Shown piece after piece: positions 2,721 to 58,720 of a DNA stretch of 64,000 nt. Source of the DNA: an uncultured Treponema sp. (GTDB taxonomy: Bacteria; Spirochaetota; Spirochaetia; Treponematales; Treponemataceae); contig CALDWC010000014.1 of the NCBI GenBank assembly GCA_937923945.1, positions 435 through 64,434 of the forward strand, given 5' to 3'. The notes beneath the pieces are model-generated. The model was not told the origin of the DNA. It saw only the letters and a program-made list of their open reading frames with translations, and ran no database searches. Positions within the stretch are counted from its first letter, which is position 1, and every line of letters begins with the position of its first letter. Position numbers and translations under genes: made by a program.

Positions 2721-2767
2721 AAGGAAACGCTGATTAAAGGCTTGACGCCGTTTAACAGCGTTTCCTT
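2721..2767 (+). repeat. Module A repeat, copy 1. A perfect 12-bp-stem hairpin AAGGAAACGCTG[ATTAAAGGCTTGACGCCGTTTAA]CAGCGTTTCCTT
   Basis: Exact inverted repeat read directly. The same 34-nt core recurs at 44378, 48304 and, reverse-complemented, at 56957. Confidence 0.8.
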
Positions 2768-2990
2768 TGGCAAAAATTATACCGGCAAAAAACTATAGTA
2801 TAAAAATTTTTATTTAAAAAACGTAACTATTTATGTCTGAACGGTGTTCCGATTAGATATGATGGTAATTATTTTTCTGTTCGCTCATCAATAAAAGTAT
2901 ATGGTTTTGTTTGTTTCGTAGTCGGCGGGTTCTCGCTTGAACGCGTTTCCCGTTTTGCAAAATAAATTCTCTATTTTTTAAGGAGTTGCT

Positions 2991-5312
2991 ATGTCAAGAC
3001 GCCGTCAGCGTTTTGCTTTTAATCACCGTAATACTGTCGGAGCAGAATTTTCCGAATTGCCGCTTTCCGAATGTTATATAACCGCGTATTACTTTTACAA
3101 ATTTTTGGCTCTGAGTTATGATGTTGATTTGGAAGATTGTTTTAACTTTTTTATGAAGTTGGCAAAACGCCTCAAGAAAACCGAAGCGATTTACGCATTT
3201 GCCGAAAAAGCGGTTGACGAATACGTAGAAAAAGGCTTGCTCACGGTTGCTGCTGAAGAACATACAACAGCGCTGCATCAGGTGCGGATGAATGAAAAAA
3301 TGCGGCAGCAAAAATGGGCGCGCTCTTTTGCGGAAGATATAAGTTTACTGAGGGATTTTTCAAACCGGAATATTACCAAAGAAAATATAAACATTATCCG
3401 TTGTATTTCGCTTGAGGATGAAAAGTTTTTCGCACGTCTCGTCTATAATTTTTTGCTGTTAAATAATCCGACGGAGAATTTGAACACATCACAGCCGTTG
3501 GACGAATCGATATATAATGCGATTGATGATCTTTCCGATATGCAGTTTTTATATGACGAGGTTGCACTTTCCGATTTGGAATTACGCTTTTTACAAATGC
3601 AATTCCGCATTGGATCAAACTATGAATTGAGTCATTTGGTGGATACATCGGATATACGGCTCAAGTTTTACTACGAAGAAGTGTTGGAGGTTTCGGGAAA
3701 AAAACTGGATCAAATTTTACGTTCCGACGGTAAACTCAGGCGCTACGGTTTTGTGGATTCTGACGGTATAATTGATACTGATATTGCTGAATGTATAAAA
3801 CATCGTGATTTGGAATTATTTTTTTCCGATTTATTAAAAAAAGCGGATGTCAGTGATAGTTACGCTGCGGAGTCTTTTAACGTTCCGGAAAAATCAACCA
3901 CAATCATTAAGCAGCTGCTCAAAGGCAAAAACCCCGTTTCGATTTTATTGTACGGAAAACCGGGGAGCGGTAAAACCCAATATGCGAAAATGATTGCAAA
4001 GGAAACAAACTTGCAAGCATTCATTTTCAAAAATGAAGCCGAATTACAGGATTCATTTGAAGAAAATATTATTGGGAAATTGAATTGCTTACTTTCGCTG
4101 AATCGTGAAAATTCGCTTTTAATAATAGACGAAGCGGACACGTTGCTCAAAACAAAAGATATGTTCACTTTTTTCGGTACGGTGCCGAGCAGACTCAAAG
4201 CGAGCATGAACAAAATGCTCGAAGAAAGCAAAAATAAAATTATTTGGATTGTAAATTCAACCGCGCAAATGGATACGTCAACGCGCCGCCGGTTTAATTT
4301 TTCTTTGAAGTTTGAAGCGATGACAACCGAGCAGCTTCGAAAAATTGCGGCTTCAAAAATTTCAGAGGTCAATATAACGGATACGATAAAAAATCAAATT
4401 TTGGATTTGTTTGAAAAGTACGATGTAACCGGCGCTTCTATCGACAATGTGGTAACGGTACTCAAAAACTTTGAAGGTATGAATGATGAAACGCTCGTTG
4501 ATTTTGCCCAAACCGTACTGAAAGAAAATTCGCTCCTCATTGCGGGAAAAACAAAAATGCGGCAAACCGTCAAAGCGAGTTATGATGTGGCTGTTTTGAA
4601 TACGTCCGTAGCGCCCGATACGGTCGTGGAGATGATTCAAAATGCGAAGCGGTTCAGCGAAAAACATAAGGGGAGTGAAAACGGAATCAGGCTGCTCTTT
4701 TACGGATTGAGCGGCACCGGCAAAACGGAATTTGTGAGATATATCGCTATGCAGACCGGTAAAAAAATTCTTTTGAAGCGGGCGAGCGATATTCTTTCGC
4801 CGTATGTCGGCGTTGCGGAACAAAATATTGCCGCGGCTTTTGAGGAAGCCGACCGGAAAGATATGATTCTCCTTTTAGATGAAGCCGATTCTTTTTTTCA
4901 GGATAGAAGCACGGCAAAGAACAGTTGGGAAGTAACGCAGGTGAATGAACTTTTAACGCAAATGGAAGAGTTTTCCGGTATTTTTATTTGTACGACAAAT
5001 TTAAAAAAGATTATGGATTCTGCGATGAACCGGCGTTTTCATGTTTTGGTTGAATTTAAGCCGCTTGAGGAAGACGGTATTCAAATGTTGCTTACAAAAT
5101 ATTTTAAGGATTGGCATTTTACAAAAACGCAGGTCAAAGAACTCGCGCGATTTGAAACGGTAACGCCGGGCGATTTCGGCACTTTGGCAAGTCGGATTCG
5201 GTTTACCGACAGCGAAAAAATCGATGCGGCGTATATTTTGCATGAGCTTAAAAAAATTCAACACGATAAGAAAAACGGCGGTGATGAAAGCACCGCGAAG
5301 ATCGGTTTTTAA
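2991..5312 (+). CDS. Tandem AAA+ ATPase (773 aa): two classic-clade AAA modules with an unrecognised ~300-aa N-terminal domain
   Basis: Module 1: Walker A LLYGKPGSGKT, Walker B LLIIDEAD, sensor-1/SRH IWIVNSTAQ...TRRRF. Module 2: Walker A FYGLSGTGKT, Walker B LLLDEADSF, sensor ICTTN...MNRRFH. SD AAGGAG lies 5 nt upstream of the ATG. Confidence 0.75.
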   Translation: MSRRRQRFAFNHRNTVGAEFSELPLSECYITAYYFYKFLALSYDVDLEDCFNFFMKLAKRLKKTEAIYAFAEKAVDEYVEKGLLTVAAEEHTTALHQVRMNEKMRQQKWARSFAEDISLLRDFSNRNITKENINIIRCISLEDEKFFARLVYNFLLLNNPTENLNTSQPLDESIYNAIDDLSDMQFLYDEVALSDLELRFLQMQFRIGSNYELSHLVDTSDIRLKFYYEEVLEVSGKKLDQILRSDGKLRRYGFVDSDGIIDTDIAECIKHRDLELFFSDLLKKADVSDSYAAESFNVPEKSTTIIKQLLKGKNPVSILLYGKPGSGKTQYAKMIAKETNLQAFIFKNEAELQDSFEENIIGKLNCLLSLNRENSLLIIDEADTLLKTKDMFTFFGTVPSRLKASMNKMLEESKNKIIWIVNSTAQMDTSTRRRFNFSLKFEAMTTEQLRKIAASKISEVNITDTIKNQILDLFEKYDVTGASIDNVVTVLKNFEGMNDETLVDFAQTVLKENSLLIAGKTKMRQTVKASYDVAVLNTSVAPDTVVEMIQNAKRFSEKHKGSENGIRLLFYGLSGTGKTEFVRYIAMQTGKKILLKRASDILSPYVGVAEQNIAAAFEEADRKDMILLLDEADSFFQDRSTAKNSWEVTQVNELLTQMEEFSGIFICTTNLKKIMDSAMNRRFHVLVEFKPLEEDGIQMLLTKYFKDWHFTKTQVKELARFETVTPGDFGTLASRIRFTDSEKIDAAYILHELKKIQHDKKNGGDESTAKIGF

Positions 5313-5346
5313 ATAAACGGTATGTCGTTGGATAAAAACGATATAG

Positions 5347-5374
5347 TTGACTTTTTTTTGTTTTTGAGTACAAT
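5347..5374 (+). promoter_or_regulatory. Sigma70-like promoter TTGACT-16nt-TACAAT directly abutting the rpoZ ATG (possible leaderless transcript)
   Basis: -35 at 5347-5352 and -10 at 5369-5374. The ATG at 5381 is only 6 nt downstream of the -10. Confidence 0.35.
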
Positions 5375-5380
5375 GGCGGT

Positions 5381-5581
5381 ATGATTTTTCCACTGCAAAA
5401 CTTAATTGAATATGAAGATAATATTTACGAAATTACCTGTGCGGCGACCAGACGGGCGGAACAGCTTGCATCACTACAGGCTTCCGATGAAATTGATGTC
5501 AAGGTAAACGTGGTATCCGAAGCGGCAAAAGAGATTTTTACCCACGAAGTCGAATACCAAATCGCTCAGGATTCGATGTAA
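5381..5581 (+). CDS. rpoZ: DNA-directed RNA polymerase subunit omega
   Basis: 66 aa. NLIEYEDNIYEITCAATRRAEQL matches the RpoZ core (N-R-[FY]-x-L-V-x-x-A-A-x-R-A-R-Q-L pattern). Confidence 0.7.
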   Translation: MIFPLQNLIEYEDNIYEITCAATRRAEQLASLQASDEIDVKVNVVSEAAKEIFTHEVEYQIAQDSM

Positions 5582-5582
5582 C

Positions 5583-6560
5583 TTGTCTAAAACCGACGAG
5601 CCGATTCCCGCAATTGTTATTTTTGGTGCAACCGCTTGCGGTAAAACCGATTTTGCGGTTTCAGTTTTCGGACGCAACTCGGCAAGCGGTTTGGCGGGAA
5701 CCTGTGAAATCATCAATGCCGATTCCGTGCAAGTGTACCGCGAGTCGCTCATTGCCTCCGCCCGTCCGACGGCGGAAGAACGGCAGGAAGTTCCGCACCA
5801 TTTAGTTGGTATCCGCGAAGGCTCGCAGGAATTTTCTGTGAGCGATTTTGTCCGCGAAGCGGATGCGGCATGTGAAAATATTTTTGAACGCGGGCGTGTT
5901 CCTGTTTTGCTCGGCGGTTCCGCATTTTTTCTTAAAAATTTTTTACTGAGTTTACCGGCAACGCCGCCGGCAGATGAAGCGGTGCGGAAGCGCCTGCAAG
6001 CTGAATTGCAGCAATTCGGCGAAACCGCATTGTTTGAGCAGTTACAGAAGTGCGATCCGGTCAGTGCGTCACGGATACAAATACGCGACCACTACCGCGT
6101 TTTACGCGCTTTGGAAGTGTATGAAACGGCAAAGAAACCGCTGAGCAGTTTCGAACTTTCAACCGAGCTGCGCAGCCGGTACCGCTTTTTGATTTTAACG
6201 CTCACCCGCTCGCGTGAAACGCTCTATCGCCGTATTGAACGGCGGGTTGATAAAATGTTTGCCGGCGGCTTGTGCGAGGAGTTTGAAACGCTGTACCGGA
6301 AAGGCTACACAGCGGAAAGTCCCATTATGAAAGCAATCGGATACCGCGAGTTTTTTACGGTGAACGAAAAAGCGCCGTTGAGTGCCGACCCCGAAGTCGT
6401 GAAAGCGTTGATAAAACGTAACACGCGGCGGTATGCAAAACGCCAAGAAACTTTTTTTAAGAAAATTCCTCAAAACCGCGTCGTTGATTTAGAAAATAAA
6501 AGTGAAGTTACTGCGGCGATTCTCAAACTTGAAACTTTCGTTGAACATTCGTTTTGTTGA
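5583..6560 (+). CDS. miaA: tRNA dimethylallyltransferase (TTG start, 2 nt after the rpoZ stop)
   Basis: N-terminal P-loop IVIFGATACGKTDFA, conserved INADSVQVYR and VPHHL motifs, about 325 aa. Confidence 0.85.
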   Translation: MSKTDEPIPAIVIFGATACGKTDFAVSVFGRNSASGLAGTCEIINADSVQVYRESLIASARPTAEERQEVPHHLVGIREGSQEFSVSDFVREADAACENIFERGRVPVLLGGSAFFLKNFLLSLPATPPADEAVRKRLQAELQQFGETALFEQLQKCDPVSASRIQIRDHYRVLRALEVYETAKKPLSSFELSTELRSRYRFLILTLTRSRETLYRRIERRVDKMFAGGLCEEFETLYRKGYTAESPIMKAIGYREFFTVNEKAPLSADPEVVKALIKRNTRRYAKRQETFFKKIPQNRVVDLENKSEVTAAILKLETFVEHSFC

Positions 6561-6573
6561 ATAACCCCATTAT

Positions 6574-8571
6574 TTATGAAATATTTTTACTCGCCTGTAA
6601 AATTTCATCGGCAACCGATTCACTTACGCTGAGCGCTGCGGCAATTTCCGGCACGCTCGCATGCGAAAGACTTTCAAGCGAGCCGAATCGGTTAAGCAAC
6701 CGTTTTGCGCGTACTTCTCCGACGTGCGGTAATTGATTAAACGGCAAAGTCAGTTCGGCTTTTTCGCGTAAGCGCTTATTCCGTGTGTTCGCAAAGCGGT
6801 GCGCTTCATCGCGTACCCGTTGGAGAACCCGAAGTGCGGGACTTTTCCGCGGCAAGCGCAGCGGAGTTGCCGTATGCGGAAAAAATATTTCTTCGTTTTT
6901 TTCCGCCAAGCCGATAACCGGAATTTCCAATTTTAACGCCGACAAAATGGCATGAGCGGAATTAACCTGACCGATTCCGCCGTCAATGAGAATCAAATCG
7001 GGAAGTTCGGCGTGTTCATTGAGTAACCGCGTGTAGCGGCGGGCAACGGCTTCTTTCATCGACGCGTAATCGTTGTTGATGCCGTCCGTTGTTTTTAACC
7101 GAAAGAGTCGGTAATTTTTTTTGTCGGGGTTGCCGTCTTTAAATGAAATTAAACTTGCTACGGTAAATTTTCCTTCCAAGTGTGCGATGTCGAACCCCTC
7201 AATCCGTATCGGTAAAGCGGGCAAATTCAAAACTTTTTTCAATTCTTCCAAGCCCGCCCAATCACCGTATTCACGCAAGCGCCGTACTACATCTTCGTGG
7301 GCGTTAAAATACGCCATGCTGAGAGCTGCTCTATGACGGCGAAAATCTTTAAGCGGCATTTCGAAGCGGTCGGCAAGTTGCGCATCATCGCTTGAAACGG
7401 CAACCGTTTTTTGCAGCTCCTGCGAAAAATACTGCTTGGTTTGTTCCGCGGCAAAAGAGGCGCCGTCCGCTTCCGGTTCACGGTAATGGTGCTTTAACAA
7501 AATCGGCAGCTGCACGAGACGTACGGTACCCGAAAGTTTTTGTTCAAACCATTCGTTGAGAATAGCAAACCCTTCATCAGCGTTCGGGCTGTTCGTAGCG
7601 TTTTGCTGCGTCGCTGTACTGTTGTGTGCAGTCGCAATAAAAATAGTCCGCGGAAGTTCTTTTTTATCTTGATAATACATAGGCAAAAATTCCTGCACAA
7701 CTTCGCTGTCATCTTTCAACGATTGTGTCCGGTATATATCGCGCGCAACCAATTTTCCGTTCCGCATTTTTAACACGGCAAAGGTGATCATCGCCCCTTC
7801 GCACGCCCAAGCAACATAGTCCCGCGAATGTTCGTCGAGATCTTCAACTACATTTTGATTGTGCAGCGCTAAAATCGATTGAATGCCGTCACGCAACCGT
7901 TTCGCTTTTTCAAAGTCCAACGCCTGAGCCGCTTTCTGCATTTCTTTTTGTAACGCATCAATACTGTCCGCATTGGTGAGTAAATTTTTTATTTCATCGA
8001 TTGCTTGTGCGTATTCGGCTTCGGAAACTTTTCCGCAACAAGGTGCGGTGCAGCGTCCGATGTGATAATATAAGCAAGGGTATTTTCGTTTTCGCAAAAC
8101 TTTGCATTGCCGCACTGTGTAATTTTGTTTTACCAGTTGTAAAAAACTTTCAACGGCATAGACATTGGGAAACGGTCCGAAATAAAAGGAGCCGTCATTT
8201 TTTAAAGTGCGCGTTTTAAAAATAGCGGGGAATTTTTCATTGGTGATTTTTATCACCGGATATGTTTTCCCGTCTTTTAAACAAATGTTGTATTTCGGTT
8301 TATGTTTTTTGATGAGCGTGTTTTCCAAAAGGAGTGCTTCGTATTCTGTTTTCGTTTCAATGTACTCCAATTCACAAGCACGTGAAACCAAAATACGCGT
8401 TTTTACATCTTTGTTTTTTGCAAAGTATGAGAGTAGACGATTTTTAAGCGACTTTGCTTTGCCAACATAAATAATCGTTCCGTGTTCATCTTTCCAAAAA
8501 TAAACACCGCTTTGCATCGGGGCTTTTAATGCAACTTCGTGTAAATGCTCGCGTACATTCATTGGAAGCAT
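6574..8571 (-). CDS. uvrC: Excinuclease ABC subunit C
   Basis: GIY-YIG N-terminus (GVYFWKDEHGTIIYVGKAKSLKNRLLSYF), UvrC central domain, C-terminal HhH (LPHVGEVRAKRLLNRFGSLESL). Confidence 0.9.
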   Translation of the reverse strand: MLPMNVREHLHEVALKAPMQSGVYFWKDEHGTIIYVGKAKSLKNRLLSYFAKNKDVKTRILVSRACELEYIETKTEYEALLLENTLIKKHKPKYNICLKDGKTYPVIKITNEKFPAIFKTRTLKNDGSFYFGPFPNVYAVESFLQLVKQNYTVRQCKVLRKRKYPCLYYHIGRCTAPCCGKVSEAEYAQAIDEIKNLLTNADSIDALQKEMQKAAQALDFEKAKRLRDGIQSILALHNQNVVEDLDEHSRDYVAWACEGAMITFAVLKMRNGKLVARDIYRTQSLKDDSEVVQEFLPMYYQDKKELPRTIFIATAHNSTATQQNATNSPNADEGFAILNEWFEQKLSGTVRLVQLPILLKHHYREPEADGASFAAEQTKQYFSQELQKTVAVSSDDAQLADRFEMPLKDFRRHRAALSMAYFNAHEDVVRRLREYGDWAGLEELKKVLNLPALPIRIEGFDIAHLEGKFTVASLISFKDGNPDKKNYRLFRLKTTDGINNDYASMKEAVARRYTRLLNEHAELPDLILIDGGIGQVNSAHAILSALKLEIPVIGLAEKNEEIFFPHTATPLRLPRKSPALRVLQRVRDEAHRFANTRNKRLREKAELTLPFNQLPHVGEVRAKRLLNRFGSLESLSHASVPEIAAALSVSESVADEILQASKNIS

Positions 8572-8681
8572 TATACTTATTTTTCAACGGCAAGACAAGT
8601 CTGCGGTGATTAAACTGACGTTTTGCTCTTTGTATAAAAACGAAAAAAATGTATAATGAAACAAATACGATCAGGAGTGAA

Positions 8682-9401
8682 ATGGTATCTATTGCAATTG
8701 TTGAAGATGATGCCGTTCAGGCAAAGTGCATCGAAAAATATATTAATAGTTGGGCCTGTGAAAAGTTTGCAGAAGTACGGGTGTGCATTTTTACTTCCGC
8801 CGAAAACTTTTTGTTTGAGTTTGAAGATAATAAAGATTTGAATATTATTCTTTTAGATGTGATGATGCACGGCATGAATGGAATTGAACTTGCAAAAAAA
8901 GTGCGGAAGCTGGATCGCGGACAGTCGATTATTTTTATTACCGGAGCTGCCGAATATATTGCGGAAGGTTATGAAGTTGAAGCGATTAATTATCTTATTA
9001 AACCGGTGAAAAAAGAAAAATTGTTTTCCTGTTTAACCAAAGCCTTGGAAAAACAAAATGAACACCCCCCTTTTATTATTATCTCTTCGAATTATGAAAA
9101 GGTAAAAATATTTTGTGATGAAATTATATTTGTCGAATCGATTGCGCATAACCTAAACATAAAAACAAAAAATAAAGCATACATCACGCGAATGCTTTTA
9201 TCCGATATTGAAAAAATGCTCGGTACAACATACTTTGTAAAAACGCACCGCGCATTTATCGTCAATATTTCATTGATACGACAAATTCAAAAAGAATTTC
9301 TTTTTATGGAAGACGGTTCAAAAATTACGATTAGTCGCCGCGAATATAAAAACGTGAATGAGCGGTTTATCAACTATCATATAATAAAGGAACAAGAATG
9401 A
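8682..9401 (+). CDS. LytTR-family response regulator (CheY receiver plus LytTR DNA-binding domain). Start moved to ATG 8682 because the 8649 ATG lies inside the -10 box
   Basis: Receiver IAIVEDD...ILLDVMMHGMNGIELAKK...LIKP. LytTR domain IFCDEIIFVESIAHNLNIKT...FVKTHRAFIVNISLI. SD CAGGAGTG upstream. Putative promoter TTGTAT-16-TATAAT at 8620-8657. Confidence 0.8.
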   Translation: MVSIAIVEDDAVQAKCIEKYINSWACEKFAEVRVCIFTSAENFLFEFEDNKDLNIILLDVMMHGMNGIELAKKVRKLDRGQSIIFITGAAEYIAEGYEVEAINYLIKPVKKEKLFSCLTKALEKQNEHPPFIIISSNYEKVKIFCDEIIFVESIAHNLNIKTKNKAYITRMLLSDIEKMLGTTYFVKTHRAFIVNISLIRQIQKEFLFMEDGSKITISRREYKNVNERFINYHIIKEQE

Positions 9402-10135: not shown

Positions 10136-10171
10136 GAGTTGCTATCATTTATATCGGTTCGGTTTGCGCGT

Positions 10172-10209
10172 GCGGTATTCATAAAATTTGATCTTCGTAT
10201 GAATACCGC
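10172..10209. terminator. 12-bp-stem hairpin GCGGTATTCATA-14nt-TATGAATACCGC between the convergent kinase and purL genes
   Basis: Perfect inverted repeat. No clear U-run on either strand, so a terminator function is uncertain. Confidence 0.3.
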
Positions 10210-10236
10210 TTGTACTGCCGCATCGTGCGCAACCCG

Positions 10237-43900: not shown

Positions 43901-44377
43901 ATGGAAAAAAAAGCGCATGTTCTCGCGGTAGTAAAAACGGAAAAAACGGGAACTCAAATTCTCAAAGTAAAACTGGACACGATTGCAACAAAAGCACAGT
44001 GTACGGTTCGCGAAGGGGAGGCATATACTTCCTGTACGGGTTGTGCCGGCTGCTCGCATGGAACGCAAACGGGGCTTTTTGCGGTAAGCGGCGACGAAGT
44101 TTTAGCTTTAAATGAAACGCCGCGTAAAGCAAAAGCGGGTGATACGCTTCTCTTATCTGTTTCGGAAGCCGTACAAAAGCGGGAACTGCTGTTTGCGGTT
44201 TTTCTTCCGCTGATCTTGGCTCTTATAGGCTTTGCCGGCGCATTCAGTATATTCAAAACGGAATTGAGCGGTATTATCGGCGTTTTTATCGGGATAATGC
44301 TCGGCGTTTTAATTTTAACCGTTGCCGGTAAACGAAGCGGAACAGCGAAATTGCCTCGTGTTGAAAAAATCCTATAG
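43901..44377 (+). CDS. RseC/MucC-family protein (SoxR-reducing system RseC-like)
   Basis: Cys-rich N-terminal domain (CTGCAGCSHG) plus two C-terminal TM helices. About 158 aa. Confidence 0.5.
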   Translation: MEKKAHVLAVVKTEKTGTQILKVKLDTIATKAQCTVREGEAYTSCTGCAGCSHGTQTGLFAVSGDEVLALNETPRKAKAGDTLLLSVSEAVQKRELLFAVFLPLILALIGFAGAFSIFKTELSGIIGVFIGIMLGVLILTVAGKRSGTAKLPRVEKIL

Positions 44378-44590
44378 GAAACGCTGATTAAAGGCTTGAC
44401 GCCGTTTACCGGTAACTTTGTGAAGCAAAGTTTTTTGCGAAGCAAAGTATCTCCGTCATTGTTTCTCAATGTTCAGTATAATAAGGTTGGCACTGAAAGG
44501 ACACCTTTTTAAAACTTTTAGTTTTTTGAACGATGACCGTAATTCTCGATTGAATTAATCAGTGCTTCCTAAAGGAAAAGCGCACTGCTA
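44376..44590 (+). repeat. Composite intergenic repeat copy (modules A-B-C) beginning at the RseC stop codon
   Basis: A: TAGGAAACGCTGATTAAAGGCTTGACGCCGTTTACC at 44376-44410. B: TTGTTTCTCAATGTTCAGTATAA at 44459-44481. C: TAATTCTCGATTGAATTAATCAGTGC at 44540-44565. An imperfect GC-rich hairpin plus T8 follows at 44607-44638. Confidence 0.8.
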
Positions 44591-44875
44591 ATTGCTGTTT
44601 TTGGGCGGGCGTATAACAATGCGCCGCCACTTTTTTTTGTACATCGTAGTTACGGCAAAAACGCCGTCTACGGGAAATTGATACATACGCACTACATCAT
44701 AATAATCGGTTACACTGTCAATGTCCTGCTTTATTTTTTGCAGCTCATTTTCGCTCACTACCGGCGATTCCCAACATGCCCGCTGAACGCGTTCAAATCC
44801 ATGTGCCGCCAACACTTCTTGCAAGTTTCGGGAACTTTCATTTCCACCCGGATCAACTACGACCGATACAAACAT
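44588..44875 (-). CDS. Cas2-like / VapD-like small protein (95 aa), solo
   Basis: MFVSVVVDPGG...SRNLQEVLAAHGFERVQRACWES...DSVTDYYDVVRMYQF parallels Cas2 (hydrophobic beta1, R-rich helix, YGxRVQxSVFEC, DSLRxYxL). Own extended -10 (TAGTATAAT) and SD AAGGAG upstream. No cas1 or CRISPR array seen. Confidence 0.4.
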   Translation of the reverse strand: MFVSVVVDPGGNESSRNLQEVLAAHGFERVQRACWESPVVSENELQKIKQDIDSVTDYYDVVRMYQFPVDGVFAVTTMYKKKWRRIVIRPPKNSN

Positions 44876-48301: not shown

Positions 48302-48460
48302 ACTAGGAAACGCTGATTAAAGGCTTGACGCCGTTTAACATCGTTTCATAATTGTTTCTCAATGTTCAGTATAAGTTGCTCTGAACATTTTTGAAACAAC
48401 AGATTTTAAATGTGTGTAGTGATTAATTCTCGATTGAATTAATCACTACCTCCAATAGGA
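48302..48460 (+). repeat. Composite intergenic repeat copy (modules A-B-C) between the 700-aa gene and rarA
   Basis: A at 48304-48347, B at 48353-48375 with the hairpin AATGTTCAG-11nt-CTGAACATT plus T5, C at 48423-48445. Confidence 0.8.
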
Positions 48461-48467
48461 TACCAGC

Positions 48468-50660
48468 GTGAGTGATATATTATTTGAAACGAATAAAACA
48501 ATCAACGCGCCGCTTGCCGATCGCATGAGGCCGAAAACGCTCGACGAATATATCGGACAAGAAGCGATAATCGGAAAGGGGCGTCTTTTGCGGCGAGCGA
48601 TTAAGTCGGATAGACTTTCGTCGATTATTTTATACGGACCGCCGGGGACGGGGAAAACGACGCTTGCAAAAATTATTGCGAATCATACGAAGAGTAACTT
48701 TCAAAGTTTGAACGCCGTCCTCGCCGGTATTCAGCAAATCCGCGATGCGATCAAAACGGCTGAAGAAAATAAACGACTCTATGATCGAAAAACAATCTTG
48801 TTTGTTGACGAAGTGCATCGCTGGAATAAGTCGCAGCAGGATGCGCTGTTGCCTTGGGTAGAAAACGGTACGGTGATTTTTATCGGGGCAACGACGGAAA
48901 ATCCTTTTTTTGAAGTGAATAAAGCGCTTGTCAGTCGGAGCCGTGTTTTTAAGTTGGAGCTTTTAACCGAAGCCGATTTAATGCGGGTTGCCCAAGCGGC
49001 GCTGACAAATACGGAAAACGGGTACGGTGCATGGCAAGTAAGCTTTGAAGAAGGGGCGTTGGAGCATTTGGTGAAAACTGCGGCAGGCGATGCCCGCAGT
49101 TTATTGAATGCCTTGGAGCTTGCCGTTGAAACAACACCTGAAAATTGGCCGCTGCCTTCCGGTGAAAAAATATTTATTTCCAAAGAAGTATGCGAAGAAA
49201 GCATTCAGCAAAAGGTTGTGCTGTACGATGCGGACGGCGATTATCACTATGATGTTATCAGTGCGTTTATTAAATCAATTCGAGGAAGCGATGTTGATGC
49301 GGCGTTATACTGGCTGGCAAAAATGGTTACTGCAGGCGAGTCGCCTCATTTTATTTTCCGCCGTCTTTTAATTTCCGCCTGCGAAGATATCGGTATGGCG
49401 AATCCGCACGCCGTTTCGGTGGTTGCATCGTGTTTGCAAGCCTTCGATACGGTCGGATTGCCGGAAGGTCAGTATCACCTTGCACACGCGACTATTTACC
49501 TTGCAACGTCGCCGAAGTCAAACAGCGCACTCGGCTTTTTTGATGCGGTTGCAACGGTGCGGGCGGAAACGACCGAAGTGCCGCGCCATTTACGTGACGC
49601 TAATCGGGATAAAGCGTTAGGTGACGGTGCGGGTTATTTATATCCGCACCAGTACCGCGATCATTGGGTTGCACAACAATATTTGCCGGATAGTTTAGTC
49701 GGAAAAATTTTTTATAAACCGAGTTCCGTCGGCTACGAAAAAGAAATCGCCCGCGATGTGTTGGGAAAACGCGAAGCGCAGCTTGCCGACTTTTTGGAGC
49801 GGACGGGTGGAACGACGAATACGCCTTTTGCCAGCGGAGCCGATGCTGTGCATAAAAATGCCGAATTTTTTTTCAACAGCACGGAGTCGAACCGCAAGGA
49901 AATTTTGCAGGCGGTGAAGCAGTATATTATTCAGGAAGCGGCATTGCAAAGTTCTTCGCGGGTTTTTATTTACAAGGCTGACAATAATTTACTCCTTTGG
50001 GAAATAAACCGAATGACTTCCGATGCGATAACGTGCGGATTGTGCAAAACCGAAAAGGCAAAAACCGTACTGGAAAAATACGCGGAAAGTTTGGATGATT
50101 TTCAAAAGCCTTTTTTGCAAGTTGCAGAAAGTGCCGATTTTTCCGATTACGAATTTGATGTGGGTGTTGCGTACTTTTCGTACACGGATGAACGCGAAGT
50201 GATCGATTTTTTTGATTATGTAAAAAAGTATGGACACAGCGGATGTCGTATTATTTTTGCCGTGCAGAATTTACAAAAAGGATTGCGCTTGGCGGAAGTG
50301 TTGCCGCTCGGCAAAACACCGCTTGATACAACGCTCGCTGAAAATTTCCGCAGTGCGGAGCAGGAGTTTTTTACACAAAAATTTTCATTCGGGAAAGATG
50401 CAATTTTAAAAACAGCCGAGCGGTGCGGGTATCCGCTTCAGTGTACCGTACAGGAGATGATTGAAAAACGTGCCGTTGATGAATCCGAAATTACATTGTG
50501 GTTTTCCGATAAAAGCGAATACGGACGGGCAATGGAAGCCCGTTTTGATGAAAACGATTTTCAGCGTATACGGGACGGAATTTGTGCGGCAGTGCGTGTT
50601 CATCGGGACGTAACGTACCGAACGGAAATGCTGTTTTTTTCCGCTGTGCAGTCGTCTTAA
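48468..50660 (+). CDS. rarA: Replication-associated recombination protein A (RarA/MgsA AAA+ ATPase) with a ~290-aa C-terminal extension (GTG start)
   Basis: Walker A LYGPPGTGKTT, Walker B LFVDEVHRWNK, sensor GATTENP, RarA C-terminal helical domain (ISAFIKSIRGSDVDAALYWLAKMV). Total 730 aa versus ~440 for a typical RarA. Confidence 0.85.
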   Translation: MSDILFETNKTINAPLADRMRPKTLDEYIGQEAIIGKGRLLRRAIKSDRLSSIILYGPPGTGKTTLAKIIANHTKSNFQSLNAVLAGIQQIRDAIKTAEENKRLYDRKTILFVDEVHRWNKSQQDALLPWVENGTVIFIGATTENPFFEVNKALVSRSRVFKLELLTEADLMRVAQAALTNTENGYGAWQVSFEEGALEHLVKTAAGDARSLLNALELAVETTPENWPLPSGEKIFISKEVCEESIQQKVVLYDADGDYHYDVISAFIKSIRGSDVDAALYWLAKMVTAGESPHFIFRRLLISACEDIGMANPHAVSVVASCLQAFDTVGLPEGQYHLAHATIYLATSPKSNSALGFFDAVATVRAETTEVPRHLRDANRDKALGDGAGYLYPHQYRDHWVAQQYLPDSLVGKIFYKPSSVGYEKEIARDVLGKREAQLADFLERTGGTTNTPFASGADAVHKNAEFFFNSTESNRKEILQAVKQYIIQEAALQSSSRVFIYKADNNLLLWEINRMTSDAITCGLCKTEKAKTVLEKYAESLDDFQKPFLQVAESADFSDYEFDVGVAYFSYTDEREVIDFFDYVKKYGHSGCRIIFAVQNLQKGLRLAEVLPLGKTPLDTTLAENFRSAEQEFFTQKFSFGKDAILKTAERCGYPLQCTVQEMIEKRAVDESEITLWFSDKSEYGRAMEARFDENDFQRIRDGICAAVRVHRDVTYRTEMLFFSAVQSS

Positions 50661-52508: not shown

Positions 52509-52515
52509 GAAATGT

Positions 52516-52896
52516 ATGATTCGCGGAATTGGAATTGATATTGTTCAAGTGGAGCGTTTGGAAAAATGGCTGACCCGTCCCGAGCCGGAAAAACTGATTG
52601 CCCGATTTTTTCACCGTGATGAAATAGCTGCGGCGCTTGCAAATCCAAAGACCGCAGCACTCAGTTTAGCCGCCCGCTTTGCGGCAAAAGAAGCATTCGG
52701 GAAAGCTTTGGGGAGCGGTTTGCGTGGGATTCGTCTCAAAGATATTTGCGTGAAAACCGCCTACAACGGCAAGCCTGAACTTGTTTTGTTCGATTCTGCG
52801 CTTGCCGCTTTTAAAACATCCGCTGCAAAATACGCGTTTGTGTCACTCAGTCACGAAAAAATGATGGCGGTTGCCGTGGTTGTGTTGGAATCTTAA
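52516..52896 (+). CDS. acpS: Holo-[acyl-carrier-protein] synthase
   Basis: MIRGIGIDIVQVERL N-terminus, AAKEAFGKALG motif, 126 aa. Confidence 0.85.
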   Translation: MIRGIGIDIVQVERLEKWLTRPEPEKLIARFFHRDEIAAALANPKTAALSLAARFAAKEAFGKALGSGLRGIRLKDICVKTAYNGKPELVLFDSALAAFKTSAAKYAFVSLSHEKMMAVAVVVLES

Positions 52897-52904
52897 AGAA
52901 CGCG

Positions 52905-52998
52905 GTTAAGGTGGGTACTGAAAAGTAGTCTTTTAAAAACATCAGCTTTTGAAAGATGCCCTCAATTCTCGATAATTAATCAGAGCCTCCTTAACCGA
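52905..52998 (+). repeat. Repeat module C copy (CAATTCTCGATAATTAATCAGA) enclosed by the inverted repeat CGGTTAAGG...CCTTAACCG
   Basis: Read directly. Lies between the convergent acpS and lysS. Confidence 0.6.
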
Positions 52999-53011
52999 TA
53001 TTAATCCTTTG

Positions 53012-54601
53012 TTAAATATGCAAAAGTTTTTCAAGCCGCGCCGCTCCGAGTATTTTCATAAAGTTTGCGAGACGCGGTCCTTGCTCTTTGTTAATGAGCG
53101 CTTTATAAACTGCAACAAAAAGTACTTTTGCATCGAGATTGCACGATTCGGCGATTTCATACAGCTTGTTTGAAATTGCTCGTTCATCGATTGAATCAAG
53201 TATCGGTAAAAGTTCTGCAGCGATTTTTTCAACGGCTTGCTTTTCGCTTCCCGAAAGTGAAACGCTCTGTCCTTCGGGGCGTAAACTGAATCGGAATTCT
53301 TCCGGCGCGCATTCGGTAATCCAGTTCCAGGCGCACACCGCTCTTGTTTTTAATCGCGGACGTTGAAAGTCCTTGAGATCGGAAAGCGAATCCAAGGTTG
53401 CATCAATATCGCCGCCGTTGATTTGTAATAAATTGCATAAATGACGGAACGGAATTTGGTACGGCATTGATTCTTGTGCAAACGATGCGTCTTTCGGCAT
53501 TTTTTCAACTTGCGAAAGTTCGTAAATGCGTTTTTCCTGCGCTAATATATCGGCGTTTTTGGCAGCTTGTACCCCGTACGCGATACGTTCGGTTTTGTCG
53601 TAATCTTCGTAAATTTTAATAACGTCCAAATCAAAGCTGATGGCAAACTCCGTGTTCGGGCGGGTACTTGCAAAAAGGTAGCGAACTACTTCCGGCTGAT
53701 AATACTGGAGCACATCGGACAGACTGATTACCTTGCCTTTTGATGAAGACATTTTGCCGGGAAGTCCTTTTAAGCCGATGAAATCGTAGCTGAATGAAAC
53801 CGGAGCGGGGTAGTGGTAGATTTCTTTTGCGACAACTTCCGCCGTGTCAAATGAACCGCCCTTTGAATGATGGTCTTTTCCGGCAGGTTCAAACACTACC
53901 TGTTCATACGCCCAACGCATTGGCCAGTCAACCCGCCAGCCGAGTTTTGCGATTTTCGTTGTGCGCAAATCGATGGTTTCTTCATTGCCGCATTCGCACA
54001 CATAATGGACGCCCCATTCGCCGTCAAACGATTTCAGCTCGGTGGTATCTTTTGAGCACTTTGAACAAAACACCGACACCGGCCAGTATTCGCCCTGTAT
54101 TTGATGTGCTTCATCACGGAAGCTGTTTAATATGGCTTTTATTTTGTCCCGTTCCAAAAGGGCTTTCCGCATACCTTCGGCGTATTGACCTTTTTGGTAA
54201 TTTGAAGCTTGGTACAAAAAAATCGGATTAACCCCGACTGCGGGCAGCACACTTTCTACATCAACTTCGTGGTGGCGTGCATAGCTTTCGTCGCGGTCGA
54301 ACGTATCCGGCACCGAGGTAATGGGAAAGCGCAAGTATTTTTCAAGCACTTCCGGCTTCGGCATATTGAGCGGTACTTTGCGGAACACATCGTAATCGTC
54401 CCACGAATAAATAAAACGCACCTTTTTGCCGAGATCCTGCAATGCCCGCACAACCAACTCTACCGAAATAATTTCACGGAAGTTTCCGATATGCACGGTG
54501 CCGGACGGCGTAATGCCTGACGCACAAGTGTACTCATCCAAATCGCCGCGTTCCCGTATAATTTTTTCTGCTGTAAAATCTGCCCAATGTAACTTATTCA
54601 T
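53012..54601 (-). CDS. lysS: Class I lysyl-tRNA synthetase
   Basis: HIGN motif (GTVHIGNFREI) and KMSSS motif (GKMSSSKG). About 529 aa, typical of spirochaete/archaeal LysRS-I. Confidence 0.9.
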   Translation of the reverse strand: MNKLHWADFTAEKIIRERGDLDEYTCASGITPSGTVHIGNFREIISVELVVRALQDLGKKVRFIYSWDDYDVFRKVPLNMPKPEVLEKYLRFPITSVPDTFDRDESYARHHEVDVESVLPAVGVNPIFLYQASNYQKGQYAEGMRKALLERDKIKAILNSFRDEAHQIQGEYWPVSVFCSKCSKDTTELKSFDGEWGVHYVCECGNEETIDLRTTKIAKLGWRVDWPMRWAYEQVVFEPAGKDHHSKGGSFDTAEVVAKEIYHYPAPVSFSYDFIGLKGLPGKMSSSKGKVISLSDVLQYYQPEVVRYLFASTRPNTEFAISFDLDVIKIYEDYDKTERIAYGVQAAKNADILAQEKRIYELSQVEKMPKDASFAQESMPYQIPFRHLCNLLQINGGDIDATLDSLSDLKDFQRPRLKTRAVCAWNWITECAPEEFRFSLRPEGQSVSLSGSEKQAVEKIAAELLPILDSIDERAISNKLYEIAESCNLDAKVLFVAVYKALINKEQGPRLANFMKILGAARLEKLLHI

Positions 54602-54665
54602 AATTCCTCAATAACCAAATACCGCATTTTACTTAATAAGCGGGAAAAAATCAACCCGTTGTATT

Positions 54666-55892
54666 TTATTTGCGTTTGCCTTGCGCCTCTTTTTTATTTC
54701 CCGTATTCAAAATTCCTTTACGGTACAGTTTTGCGGCAAGATAGCCGAGTAAACCGGCGCTCACTGCGAGAATTGCAAGACTGATCCATACAAGATATGA
54801 CGGTATCGTATCCTGCATAAAACGAATCGGCATTAAAATCGGTGAGAAAAAGGGAATATATGAAAAGACTTTAATAATCGGAATGTCCATATCATGAACG
54901 TTGAACACTAAAAAATATGGTACCAGTATCAAAAGAATAACCGGAAATACCGCTTGTCCCGCCTCTTCCATTTGATTGATTTTCGCTGCAAAAATGCTGA
55001 TAAAACAAAGGTACAGCAGCGTACCGAGTATAATAAACATAATAATAGAGATAAGGTTTCCCGTCCCGATAATCTGTAAAATCTGAGCGGCAATATCGGA
55101 GCTGCCTTCCAAATTTTTCAGTGAAAAGAATGCGACCAATCCTAAAAAAATACCGTCCAAGACAATAAAGGCAAGCAGTGCAAACACTTTTCCGAAAAGC
55201 AGTGTCGTTGTACTTGTACTCGTAATGAGAACTTCAACGGTTTTGGAAATTTTTTCCGTTACAATATTGTAAGAAAGGATACTGCTAAAACTAATTATAA
55301 TCATATACATAAGTACATTGAGTACTATCGAAAGCGCATACGTGAAGTTTTCGTTTTTCCCTAAAACAATCGGATAAGCCGAGATAGGTAGAGCAAAAAA
55401 ATTATCAAGAGCCGCCGTATCGGTGAGTCCCAAATCGCTCAACTGTAATTTTTGTAAAAACACTTTAAGAACTTCACTAAACCGTGTCATACTGGTATCA
55501 CGCATTTTAGCATTGTTTACGAGGTAATTGTAAGTCGTGTCGCCGGTAAAAACAAAAGCTCGTTCCACTTCTTCGTTTTTTATCTGCTCGATCAATGTCT
55601 GTAGTGTTTCAGGATCGTTTTCAACGAGTTTAACCGTGACTCCGAACTCATGTTCAACTACTTTGTCAAAACCGTTTTTTGCTAATCTTTTGGTGAGCAC
55701 CAATGCGTATACCGGTTTTTTATCCGCTGTCGCTGAATCCGCTTTACCGGATGATGAAGATCCTGACAGAATTTTTGGTAAAAAACTTAAAAACACAATA
55801 ACTGCTGCAGTAAGAATCGCCGTAATAATTAAGCCTTTGTTTTTCAAAAGCTGCATCAGTTCAAATTTAAAAACTGTGATAAATTTTTTCAT
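54666..55892 (-). CDS. ABC-2 family transporter permease with a large extracytoplasmic loop (NatB-like)
   Basis: N-terminal TM, a ~150-aa soluble loop, then 5 C-terminal TMs. SD AAGGAG upstream. Adjacent to the ATPase gene. Confidence 0.65.
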   Translation of the reverse strand: MKKFITVFKFELMQLLKNKGLIITAILTAAVIVFLSFLPKILSGSSSSGKADSATADKKPVYALVLTKRLAKNGFDKVVEHEFGVTVKLVENDPETLQTLIEQIKNEEVERAFVFTGDTTYNYLVNNAKMRDTSMTRFSEVLKVFLQKLQLSDLGLTDTAALDNFFALPISAYPIVLGKNENFTYALSIVLNVLMYMIIISFSSILSYNIVTEKISKTVEVLITSTSTTTLLFGKVFALLAFIVLDGIFLGLVAFFSLKNLEGSSDIAAQILQIIGTGNLISIIMFIILGTLLYLCFISIFAAKINQMEEAGQAVFPVILLILVPYFLVFNVHDMDIPIIKVFSYIPFFSPILMPIRFMQDTIPSYLVWISLAILAVSAGLLGYLAAKLYRKGILNTGNKKEAQGKRK

Positions 55893-55932
55893 AGTATAAA
55901 CTCCTTAAATTACGTACAAGGTCTTGGCTCTT

Positions 55933-56835
55933 TTACTCGGCTTTTGTTCCGGTATACTGCACAAAAATATCGTTGAGTGACGGTTCCACCAAATGGATGG
56001 AATCCACTTCATAGCGTGCGGTAATTTCTTTCATCGCAGTGCGGGCACTTTCGACATTGTCAAAGTGCAGTTGTATCGTATCACGTGCAATATTGTCCGA
56101 CGCGGTAAAATGTGCCGCATATTCGTTTTTGATTGTGTCGTTTTCAGTCGAAGTCACGGCAATACTGTTTCGCTCGTAGCTCCGTTTGATTTCCGCGATG
56201 TTTCCGCTCACGGCAACGGTACCCTTATTCAAAATAGCCATATCGCTGCAAAATTCTTCGACATAGTTCATTTGGTGCGATGAAAGCAACACGATTTTGT
56301 CCTTCGCAATTTCTTCCCGAACGAACATTTTCAGTACTTCCGCATTTACCGGATCAAGTCCCGAAAACGGTTCATCCAAGATAATAATTTCAGGATCGTG
56401 CACCAGTGCGATAATCATTTGTACTTTTTGCTGATTTCCTTTTGAAAGCGTGCTGACCGGTTTATCCTTATATTGTACAAGTTCCAAGCGCTCCAAATAT
56501 TCCATAATTTTATCTTTTGCCGCTTTTTTTGGCATACTTTTCAGTTCCGCAAAGTAGAGCAACTGCTCCAAAACTTTTTTCTTTTGATACAATACTTTTT
56601 CTTCGGGGATGTAGCCTATTTTATCTCGGTTATAGGTAAATGGCTTTCCGTCCAAAAGTATTTCACCGAAATTCGCCCGAAATACATCGACGATAATATG
56701 AAATGTCGTACTTTTGCCTGCACCGTTTCGTCCTAAAAATGCAAACGCTTTTCCGCTCTGTACTTTGAAAGAAACACCTTTTAATACTTCATTCGTACCG
56801 AAACTTTTATGCAAGTCTTTTATTTCCAATAGCAT
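55933..56835 (-). CDS. ABC transporter ATP-binding protein. Start at the internal ATG at 56835; the annotated start at 56874 is TTG
   Basis: Walker A GRNGAGKST, signature LSKGNQQK, Walker B IILDEPFSGLD. Confidence 0.85.
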   Translation of the reverse strand: MLLEIKDLHKSFGTNEVLKGVSFKVQSGKAFAFLGRNGAGKSTTFHIIVDVFRANFGEILLDGKPFTYNRDKIGYIPEEKVLYQKKKVLEQLLYFAELKSMPKKAAKDKIMEYLERLELVQYKDKPVSTLSKGNQQKVQMIIALVHDPEIIILDEPFSGLDPVNAEVLKMFVREEIAKDKIVLLSSHQMNYVEEFCSDMAILNKGTVAVSGNIAEIKRSYERNSIAVTSTENDTIKNEYAAHFTASDNIARDTIQLHFDNVESARTAMKEITARYEVDSIHLVEPSLNDIFVQYTGTKAE

Positions 56836-56956
56836 AGTGAAACCTCTCGGTTCCGATTTTACAAAAAGGGGCAATGAGGGTCAAGTGCGCAAAAGAAAAA
56901 CGGTTAGCTTTACTGAGCGAACTTATCAACTCAGTCAATTTTGATTTTTTGAAAAA

Positions 56957-57010
56957 CTAAAGGAAACGATGTTAAACGGCGTCAAGCCTTTAATCCGCGT
57001 TTCCTTTAGA
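56957..57010 (-). repeat. Module A repeat copy in reverse orientation (stem CTAAAGGAAACG / CGTTTCCTTTAG)
   Basis: The reverse complement reads CTAAAGGAAACGCGGATTAAAGGCTTGACGCCGTTTAACATCGTTTCCTTTAG. Lies between the divergent ABC ATPase gene and mgtE. Confidence 0.8.
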
Positions 57011-57190
57011 ATGTTTTTCCGCATTTGCCGGCACGGATGCCGACGCAGAATAATCTTCAAGTTTTATCGGAAACAAGATTTAGTGAACCGATAAAACTTG
57101 GCATATCGGAAAAATATAGACGTTTTTTCGATATGCTATTGACATTTTCTCCCGCTTTGTCTAGTATGCAATTCGTGGTAGGAGTCCGTC

Positions 57191-58534
57191 ATGCAAAATA
57201 ATGTCCAAGTTTTACAACTCATCGAAGAAAAAAAATTTGCCGAAGCGAAAGAATTATTGGTAACAATGAATGAAATAAACATTGCGACGTTACTGAGCGA
57301 TGTTAATGCGGAAGAAATGCTCGTGATGTTCCGCCTTTTGCCGAAAACGCTTGCGGCGGAAGTGTTTGCGTTTCTTTCAACCTACAGTCAAAAATTCATT
57401 GTTTCGGCGTTTTCGGATGCGGAACTTACCAGCTTGCTGAGTTCGCTGTTCGTTGACGATGTTGCCGACCTCGTTGAGGAAATGCCCGCAAATGTTGCAA
57501 GTAAAATTTTGAAAAATGCCAATGAAACGACTCGCCATATTGTTAATCAAATCTTGCAGTATCCGGAAGATTCTGCCGGCAGTCTTTTAACCACCGAGTA
57601 TATCCGTTTGCGGAAGCAGCAAACGGTCACGAGTGCACTCGAATCGATTCGATTGAAAGGAATTAAAACCGAAACGATTTACACGTGCTATGTTACCGAT
57701 GAACAGCGGTTTTTGCAGGGCATCGTTTCTCTGCGTGATTTGGTTTTGGCGGAGCCGGAGCAAACGTTGGAAAGTTTTATGACAACGGACTTTGTGTGCG
57801 TGAGTACCCATGATGATCGCGAAGTGGTTGCACAAGTTTTTAAAAAATACGGCTTTATTGCGCTTCCGGTCGTTGATACGGAAAAACGGCTCGTGGGAAT
57901 TATCACCGTTGATGATATTATCGATGTTATCGAAGCGGAAAACACTGAAGACTTTCACAAGATGGCGGGTATTCAGCCCTCCGAAGAAAGCTACTTGGAA
58001 ACCGGCGTTTTACGGCTTGCGCGGCACCGTATTTTTTGGCTCCTTCTTTTGATGATCACCGAAACATTTACGAGCGGTATCATTGAACACTTTACCGAAG
58101 TTTTACAAAAATGCGTATTGCTCACCGCGTTTATTCCTGTTTTGATGGATACGGGCGGAAATTCCGGAAGTCAAGCCTCGACACTTATTATCCGCGGTCT
58201 TGCAACCGGAGATTTGAAAACCAGTGATCTTCCGCGAATCCTATGGAAAGAATTCCGTATCGGGCTTTTTATTTCGGTGATTTTGTCGTCAATCATGTTT
58301 GCGAAAAACTTTTTTATCAGCGGGAAAGACCTATATGTTTCCTTGTCTGTTTCCTGTGCGATTCTTACAACGGTTATTCTTGCAAAACTCGTCGGGGCGA
58401 CTTTGCCGATTATCGCGCAAAAGCTAAAACTCGACCCTGCAACGATGGCTTCACCGATATTAACCACCGTAGTTGATACCGTGAGTTTGCTCGTGTATTT
58501 CAGTTTTGCAAAATTTTTTATTCCGGCGCTTTAG
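57191..58534 (+). CDS. mgtE: Magnesium transporter MgtE
   Basis: MgtE N domain, CBS pair, C-terminal TM domain with GNSGSQAS and the PAL tail. Confidence 0.88.
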   Translation: MQNNVQVLQLIEEKKFAEAKELLVTMNEINIATLLSDVNAEEMLVMFRLLPKTLAAEVFAFLSTYSQKFIVSAFSDAELTSLLSSLFVDDVADLVEEMPANVASKILKNANETTRHIVNQILQYPEDSAGSLLTTEYIRLRKQQTVTSALESIRLKGIKTETIYTCYVTDEQRFLQGIVSLRDLVLAEPEQTLESFMTTDFVCVSTHDDREVVAQVFKKYGFIALPVVDTEKRLVGIITVDDIIDVIEAENTEDFHKMAGIQPSEESYLETGVLRLARHRIFWLLLLMITETFTSGIIEHFTEVLQKCVLLTAFIPVLMDTGGNSGSQASTLIIRGLATGDLKTSDLPRILWKEFRIGLFISVILSSIMFAKNFFISGKDLYVSLSVSCAILTTVILAKLVGATLPIIAQKLKLDPATMASPILTTVVDTVSLLVYFSFAKFFIPAL

Positions 58535-58639
58535 AAAACGTTGATTAGAGTAATTCGCGCGGTGGGGAAAGAACGATTAAATTTCTCCTACTTGCAAAAA
58601 TTCGCAAAGCGCAATTATACCTAAAAATGGGAAAGGAAC

Positions 58640-58720
58640 ACCTCTTCTTTCGAGGCGGGTTTTTCCTCCGCTTAAGAAGGCACTGATTAATTTAATCGAG
58701 AATTAAAGGTGATACCGGCT
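58640..58720 (-). repeat. Repeat module C copy in reverse orientation
   Basis: The reverse complement of 58681-58706 reads TTTAATTCTCGATTAAATTAATCAGTG. Lies between the convergent mgtE and priA. Confidence 0.6.

Follow-up and report, generated by a model that had tools for sequence, protein, structure and literature searches.

Repeat loci in the Treponema window

A 64,000-nucleotide stretch of contig CALDWC010000014.1, from an uncultured Treponema species and referred to in its entirety as the window, contains six intergenic loci with related, hairpin-forming repeats (Table 1). We conclude that these scattered repeats are in all likelihood copies and remnants of a 153-bp non-coding MITE (miniature inverted-repeat transposable element) that occupies more than 100 sites in this uncultured lineage. 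An initial annotation, made from the letters of the window, had described a dispersed family at six or more loci composed of three modules, A, B and C, and this description holds: the 22-nt core of A, ATTAAAGGCTTGACGCCGTTTA, occurs exactly at 2733, 44387 and 48316 on the plus strand and at 56973 on the minus strand, with 0 occurrences expected by chance (dinucleotide shuffles), and module B has exact matches at the two places proposed (44458 and 48351). Module C had been placed at four sites; two of these are exact matches to the C core (44540 and 48424), while the minus-strand copy at 58684 has one mismatch and the copy near 52963 is degenerate, with a 2-nt deletion. A relaxed BLAST search of the window with 64 foreign full-length copies as queries returned the same six loci and no others. 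We also observed homology outside these modules, between 44484-44572 and 52907-52990.

Table 1. Copies and remnants of the repeat family in the window
Feature	Position	Strand	Composition and match	Flanking bases (left / right)	Gene context
Solo A palindrome	2723-2765	+	Left terminal repeat GGAAACGCTG, 23-nt core, inverted arm CAGCGTTTCC	CTAA / TTTG, no target duplication	Between genes for a methyl-accepting chemotaxis protein (55-2463) and an AAA ATPase (2991-5312)
Full-length long variant, 193 bp	44377-44569	+	nhmmer model positions 1-153, E 5e-24	TATA (44373-44376) / TAAA (44570-44573), 3 of 4 positions match	RseC-like gene (43901-44377)
Full-length A-B-C copy, 148 bp	48306-48453	+	nhmmer E 1e-38; 86% identity to family consensus	ACTA (48302-48305) / AATA (48454-48457), 3 of 4 positions match	Between the stop of a TP_0021_N-family gene (48294) and the AGGA Shine-Dalgarno sequence and GTG start of an MgsA-like gene (48468)
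Internally deleted copy, 94 bp	52897-52990	+	Left end degenerate (AGAACGCGGTTAA), fused to a D-C part at a TTAAAGG repeat	TTAA (52893-52896) / TTAA (52991-52994), perfect duplication	Left TTAA contains the acpS stop TAA
Solo A palindrome	56962-57004	-	Core on minus strand		Divergent space, ABC ATPase gene (55933-56874, -) and mgtE (57191-58534, +)
3'-end fragment	58676-58710	-	C right arm and right terminal repeat, GAAGGCACTGATTAA on plus strand	TTAA abuts at 58672-58675	Convergent space, mgtE and priA (58820-60793, -)

The structural claims made for these loci need some correction. A perfect 12-bp stem, attributed to module A at all four of its loci, is found solely at about 2721-2768, where the stem of the first palindrome extends a little beyond its ends (-31.1 kcal/mol, z -7.4); the 3' arm is missing from the copy at 44377, and the copies at 48306 and 56962 have mismatched stems. 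In the window's truncated copies this structure is gone (z about 0). The repeats do lie in co-directional and convergent intergenic spaces, as had been noted, but the list is incomplete: the palindrome at 56962 is in a divergent space, and the elements are therefore not confined to the 3' ends of genes. Similarly, the observation that units begin at or after stop codons is accurate for three copies, since the G of the RseC-like TAG stop is the first base of the copy at 44377, the copy at 48306 begins 11 nt past a TAA and that at 52897 directly past one; however, we attribute this positioning to a TTAA-like insertion target and not to a role in termination. The six copies in the window are older and more decayed than the metagenome copies, as seen in their imperfect duplications, in an identity of 86% with the consensus and in the presence of solo and fragmentary forms.

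Neighbouring genes in the window match the Pfam families TP_0214 and TP_0021_N, which assigns the window to Treponema. Just downstream of the element at 44377, positions 44604-44640 form a GC-rich hairpin, GGGCGGGCG...CGCCGCC followed by T8, in the convergent space before a 95-residue open reading frame (ORF) without a Pfam match (44588-44875, minus strand); this hairpin is likely a genuine terminator, separate from the MITE. The MgsA/RarA-like ATPase encoded at 48468-50660 has 730 residues, far more than the roughly 440 of a typical MgsA, and the long form is kept across Treponema (744-751 residues in T. vincentii).

The 153-bp element, its distribution and its insertion sites

Alignment of the copies shows that modules A, B and C are parts of one 153-bp unit, whose consensus, GGAAACGCTGATTAAAGGCTTGACGCCGTTTAACAGCGTTTCCTTATTGTTTCTCAATGTTCAGTATAATAAGGTAGATTCTGAACATTTGCGAAACAATAGATTTTAAAGGTGGGCACTGATTAATTCTCGATTGAATTAATCAGTGCCTCC, was built from 21 strict copies; a profile search with nhmmer gave 321 matches, 67 of them full length. 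The left end, GGAAACGCTGATTAA, and the right end, TTAATCAGTGCCTCC, form imperfect terminal inverted repeats that are complementary at 12 of 15 positions; the same 12/15 is obtained when GGAAACGCTGATTAA is compared with the reverse complement of the 3' end, GGAGGCACTGATTAA, and RNAalifold pairs the two ends as well. The consensus folds into three consecutive hairpins, A, B and C, with a minimum free energy of -69.8 kcal/mol, and in hairpins A and C the terminal repeat is paired with an internal inverted copy of itself. It is non-coding, with stop codons in all six frames and neither a transposase nor a long ORF. A mini-ORF on the minus strand of module C (GGAGG, then CTG/GTG ATT AAT ...) was considered and rejected, the copies differing by 2-nt indels and having stops in every frame.

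The family is variable in length. Long forms carry a (GCAAAGT4-6)n insert in place of the 3' arm of A, or an insert of about 42 nt, termed D, in the left arm of C. The copy at 44377 owes its odd structure to being of this long type: its left end and A core are followed by a GCAAAGT(4-6) short-repeat insert replacing the A 3' arm, then by the left arm of B, the D insert and the right end of C. Deletions between short internal repeats account for shorter derivatives, namely A-C forms, a 42-bp end-to-end form, solo C or 3' fragments and, probably, solo A palindromes. Once duplicates and contig-end cases were removed, there were 42 full sites (about 153 bp), 33 that are long or compound, 34 that resemble solo A, 17 with C only and 44 of other kinds. 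The minimal 42-bp derivative (L140, 1528-1567) consists solely of the left terminal repeat and, joined to it, the C loop with the right terminal repeat. It is bounded by TAAA on both sides, a perfect duplication, and this suggests that mobilisation needs no more than the terminal repeats.

Scanning metagenome contigs with a 20-nt A core, we recovered at least 99 stretches with at least 118 distinct sites, all from assembly ERZ1673752, at a coverage of about 4-8x; these counts are lower bounds. The flanks of these sites are unrelated to each other. Two conserved proteins on the ERZ1673752 contigs are 84-94% identical to proteins of L189, a Treponema contig syntenic with the window, and we therefore assign these copies to the same clade as the window. 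No ERZ1673752 locus covers any gene of the window, so either the two organisms carry insertions at different places or ERZ1673752 lacks an assembled counterpart of the window region. Many copies are closely similar, 28 of them being 93.5-99.3% identical to the consensus, which implies recent amplification; the best copy in the window reaches 86%.

The elements are also retained in twelve independent metagenome contigs from other samples that are 96.7-100% identical to the window, and the palindrome at 56962 is kept in a strain contig of 96.7% identity. Among the contigs 96.7-99.9% identical to the window we saw no presence/absence differences between strains. Logan contigs of the window species from five sequencing runs (L002, L004, L005, L007 and L008) all end at 44401, inside the A core, in keeping with a genomic repeat, and this common break is a practical signature of a repeat in k-mer assemblies.

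Outside this Treponema clade we found no sequence similarity in species-representative genomes, syntenic loci, viral contigs or plasmids. An exact 21-mer of the A core had 0 matches in 185,579 species-representative genomes, from which we conclude that the host species and its repeat are not represented there; the species has no close relative among these genomes, in which the best match to the MgsA-like protein has 59% identity over the full length, or 72% over a partial match. Short-word BLAST of 80 syntenic loci of relatives, fetched by the MgsA-like protein, gave no homologues of the repeat, the motif of the terminal repeats, GGA..C.CTGATTAA, does not occur in 1.3 Mb of loci from relatives, the A and C cores had 0 matches in viral contigs, and the 153-bp consensus had no match among PLSDB plasmids in distant mode. 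On these searches, the family is apparently new and lineage-restricted.

Evidence for transposition lies in the bases that flank the copies. Among 66 distinct full copies, the 4 bp before GGAAAC and the 4 bp after CCTCC are identical in 35, whereas random re-pairing, repeated 1000 times, gave 7.1 on average and never more than 15; a further 15 copies match at three of four positions; the register of the duplication is exactly 4 bp. Among the 24 copies with the best scores, a hand tally gives 21 with a perfect duplication. Of the 54 copies in which at least one flank differs from TTAA, 23 still have identical flanks (TTAC, ATAA, AAAA, TTAG, TTTA, TTGA, TCAA, TATA, CTAA, GTAA and others), so this is a true direct duplication and not part of the element ends. 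The target logo is palindromic and AT-rich, c-TTAA-g, with C at -1 in 22/35 and G at +1 in 18/35.

Unoccupied orthologous sites provide a second line of evidence. L189, which is 95 kb long and comes from a sister species, encodes an MgsA-like protein with 78% identity and has its genes in the same order, TP_0021_N-MgsA-CdaA-YbbR-AcpS-LysS. At the acpS/lysS junction it has a base-exact empty site, 'gaaaaTTAAccgtaacc' (...TTAACCG...), where the window reads 'gaatcTTAA[94-bp element]TTAAccgatatt'. Between TP_0021_N and MgsA, L189 has a spacer of 37 nt and the window one of 173 nt; the AGGA ribosome-binding site is conserved, and the insertion point at 48306 is also empty in the relatives L194 and L195. 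The family model found no copy in the close-relative contigs L189, L190, L194 and L195 (about 59 kb). Presence and absence at orthologous sites, two of them empty in L189, is evidence of past mobility. The family thus shows every structural feature of a bacterial MITE as defined in PMC3184786: size, terminal inverted repeats, target duplication and dispersed copies.

Other repeats accompany the MITE in the metagenome. A second family, of about 170 bp (AAAAGTTTGGTAAATTTTTAAAATTTCTCGGCAAATATTTTAAAATATTTGGTAAAT...GCTGCCACGG) and containing iterations of TTTGGTAAAT motifs, gave 25 BLAST matches, none of them in the window (sites at L110 10394, L139 12703, L140 (-) 8492, L152 (-) 14650, L160, L165 and L182 4059), and often has a MITE C end directly at one border and an A end at the opposite border, an arrangement suggestive of repeated MITE-repeat-MITE composites. 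Two more repeats stand beside MITE copies of the same metagenome genome, a unit of about 120 nt (AAGAGAGCTGCTGCATAGTACTTAATCG...) and arrays of CTATACAGTGC-like motifs (L094 12600-12730, L111 around 2200-2340, L117 4260-4420, L123 and L149); neither occurs in the window.

Proposed mechanism and competing explanations

We hypothesize that a DDE-type transposase, presumably supplied by an insertion sequence elsewhere with matching ends, would bind the terminal repeats, make 4-bp staggered cuts in the target and move the elements in trans. The copies themselves show that insertion leads to a 4-bp duplication at an AT-rich, palindromic c-TTAA-g target and that they build up exclusively between genes, in any orientation. 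A preference for TTAA(G) may explain why the elements abut TAA stops and AGGA/GGAG ribosome-binding sites, and any effects on neighbouring genes, such as hairpins formed on read-through, CCUCC beside a Shine-Dalgarno sequence or a chance promoter in the copy at 48306, would be by-products. This promoter-like match, TTGACG-N16-CATAAT (48325-48352, 10/12 sigma-70-like), points toward the MgsA-like gene; we rejected a general promoter reading, as the match occurs in this copy only, where a C-to-A substitution specific to the copy produced it at the A/B junction, and has no counterpart in the consensus by eye.

Among the groups of ISfinder, a 4-bp duplication with GG/GA termini would best fit the IS5 group, which we treat only as a lead. 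The IS5 group has a YTAR-like target, GG or GA termini and a DDE_Tnp_1 transposase; IS701, ISH3 and IS1380 also give duplications of 4-5 bp. The element's 4-bp duplication, GGA termini and palindromic cTTAAg target are compatible with these IS5-group features.

Several observations weigh against a MITE. We found no autonomous partner or transposase, and no pair of terminal repeats around a transposase-like ORF, in 840 kb of metagenome loci and the window; the search for a partner covered the copy-bearing loci, the window and the relatives' loci, and the bare terminal repeat was not sought genome-wide. All metagenome matches, the at least 99 stretches, come from one assembly, and the distribution is thus poorly known. 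Two of the three bounded copies in the window have flanks that match at only three of four positions, and direct duplications flank 0 of 20 solo A palindromes. Finally, hairpins A and C contain an excess of compensatory changes that a selfish element moved by binding at its ends alone would not obviously need.

The candidates raised by the partner search were each set aside. Pairs of terminal repeats 0.4-4 kb apart with matching duplications proved to be coincidental pairs of separate MITEs, for example at L186 6596-8262, around an ordinary 475-residue gene. All-against-all BLASTP of 1,199 ORFs revealed no high-identity, multi-copy ORF, and Pfam searches of ten ORFs flanked by repeat pieces identified housekeeping enzymes and one weak match to Transposase_31 (YhgA-like). 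The latter is a 244-residue ORF between two MITE pieces (L131 6271-7002; YhgA/Rpn-like PD-(D/E)XK, E 7e-6) and is probably a mere neighbour. A solo A palindrome that transposes as an independent mini-element was likewise rejected: as they lack duplications, solo A palindromes do not transpose on their own and probably remain from deletions.

The initial annotation had left the choice between repetitive extragenic palindromes (REP), MITE-like elements, small structured RNAs and terminators, and it had allowed that the copies might be restricted to the window; of these, it is the MITE that the data favour. A local artefact, whether duplicated flanks of a single insertion or an error of assembly, might be suspected from the window alone, in which five of the six loci fall inside 15 kb, but we discount it entirely, given at least 118 distinct sites with unrelated flanks in an independent assembly and the copies in twelve independent contigs from other samples, at 96.7-100% identity. 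The possibility that these are REPs or bacterial interspersed mosaic elements (BIME), spread by a REP-associated tyrosine transposase (RAYT; IS200/IS605-like, Y1) that recognises hairpins as single-stranded DNA, deserves more thought, because both ends of the element are self-complementary hairpins, the architecture is a modular, BIME-like mosaic, solo A and C palindromes of about 42-45 bp lack target duplications, and compensatory changes without a mismatch bias toward one RNA strand fit a hairpin at the DNA level. We nevertheless consider it highly improbable. REPs, which are palindromes of 20-40 bp, have no target duplication, and full units with terminal inverted repeats and a variable 4-bp direct duplication are not a product of Y1 transposition; moreover, there is no conserved GTAG-type 5' tetranucleotide, and no Y1 transposase gene beside the copies (10 flanked ORFs scanned). 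The resemblance of solo A and solo C forms to REPs is only superficial.

We give about equally little credence to the proposal that the repeats are small structured RNAs, or cis-acting RNA elements (terminators, attenuators, mRNA stabilisers or anti-Shine-Dalgarno switches) kept for regulation. Its appeal lies in the stability of the hairpins (z down to -7.4), in the position of several copies, which follow a stop codon, precede the ribosome-binding site of the next gene and have CCUCC beside AGGA/GGAG, and in the distance to predicted starts, which is 13-25 nt for the C end in more cases than for the A end (8 vs 3 of 30); in addition, a comparable repeat of 155 bp, bcr1 of Bacillus cereus, is transcribed (PMC3184786). 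However, the copies occur in both orientations and in all three intergenic geometries, divergent promoter regions included: all placed full copies are intergenic (21 co-directional, 12 divergent and 7 convergent), with an orientation relative to co-directional genes of 13:8, and the A and C ends are equally distributed with respect to gene starts and stops (30, 28, 30 and 25). Across the entire window, Rfam has 0 matches at its gathering threshold, and for the elements a cutoff of E <= 10 still yields none. Unlike an intrinsic terminator, in which a GC-rich hairpin oriented with the upstream gene runs straight into a T-tract, the canonical hairpins lack a T-tract behind them, and inside the elements a terminator scan flags nothing; the long variant alone has T6 after a hairpin, an AT-rich one. 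In sister species with the same gene order these sites are unoccupied, and the truncated copies in the window are structureless.

The pattern of substitution in the hairpins also bears on this question. Pairing is kept in 94.5% of cells, and hairpins A and C contain 12 pairs with double-sided changes, as against 2.6 +/- 1.4 in shuffles and at most 4 with slid partners. Single-sided changes of the G.U and A.C types are equally common, 81 vs 78 in A and 33 vs 33 in C, which argues that the constraint, if real, acts on a DNA palindrome or comes from arm-to-arm copying, and not on one strand of RNA. We further note that diverged copies (window 48414-48451, L099 931-1076, L127 7633-7782 and the L137 5315 region) contain two or three compensated pairs in hairpin C, more than independent mutation should give; in the window copy at 48306 there are two, with GTAGTG/CACTAC replacing GCACTG/CAGTGC. 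These multiple pairs may reflect arm-to-arm copying or selection on the DNA palindrome.

It is conceivable, but in our view unlikely, that the self-complementary ends are themselves functional. The element might be moved, in the form of hairpin or cruciform DNA, by a transposase of unconventional type that nevertheless leaves a 4-bp duplication, and solo A and C forms would then be its footprints or minimal substrates; alternatively, the host might have co-opted the hairpins and the CCUCC terminus to tune translation downstream. The basis for this suggestion is the pairing between each end and its internal copy, which has been kept by compensatory substitutions in window 48306, L099, L127 and L137. 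The favoured reading is a conventional MITE, a well-known kind of selfish DNA and not a new class of RNA gene or regulatory system.

Relation to known repeat families

As a MITE, the family accounts for six puzzling structured intergenic sequences and for fixed breaks in short-read contigs of an uncultured Treponema, and the 153-bp consensus and its profile can be used to mask its copies, over 100 in each genome. In a Treponema clade without a cultured representative, it is the record of a lineage-restricted burst of recent activity. The c-TTAA-g target would place copies between the stops and ribosome-binding sites of housekeeping operons, where they are useful as strain markers and possible modifiers of operon expression.

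In genomic behaviour, the family resembles the Correia/NEMIS elements of Neisseria, which are likewise small, non-coding and multi-copy, with terminal inverted repeats, a short AT-rich target duplication, an intergenic location in every orientation, stable stem-loops and no cognate transposase nearby. Correia/NEMIS elements measure about 104-157 bp and duplicate TA, whereas the Treponema duplication is 4 bp (c-TTAA-g); the Treponema ends are 15 nt long, match at 12/15 positions and pair with internal inverted copies, giving three separate hairpins in place of one long end-to-end stem. BOX elements of Streptococcus pneumoniae contain tandemly repeated boxB units and are not known to have clear target duplications, while the Treponema family varies by insertion and deletion between short repeats and has clear ones. 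With BOX it shares a modular A-B-C organisation, variable internal modules and many mosaic or shortened forms (PMC3184786, PMC3049150).

The closest relative in size, in its independent stem-loops and in their compensatory changes is bcr1 of the B. cereus group, a repeat of about 155 bp with short direct repeats, a non-conserved distribution between related strains and no known transposase, whose independent 'cruciform-like' stem-loops are kept by compensatory changes and which has been regarded as a special class of mobile repeat (PMC3184786). The two differ in that bcr1 has 5-bp direct repeats, two stem-loops and demonstrated transcription, whereas the Treponema family has 4-bp duplications and three stem-loops, is known from DNA alone and shows a mismatch symmetry that argues against selection at the RNA level. 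In a census of conserved MITEs in spirochaete genomes, those of Leptospira, Sediminispirochaeta and Treponema are reported to be unusually rich in MITEs, with an average of about 145 per genome and roughly 90% of them intergenic (PMC11602168). The copy number and intergenic location of the present family match that census, to which it adds one well-characterised example of spirochaete MITE richness while opening no new mechanism.

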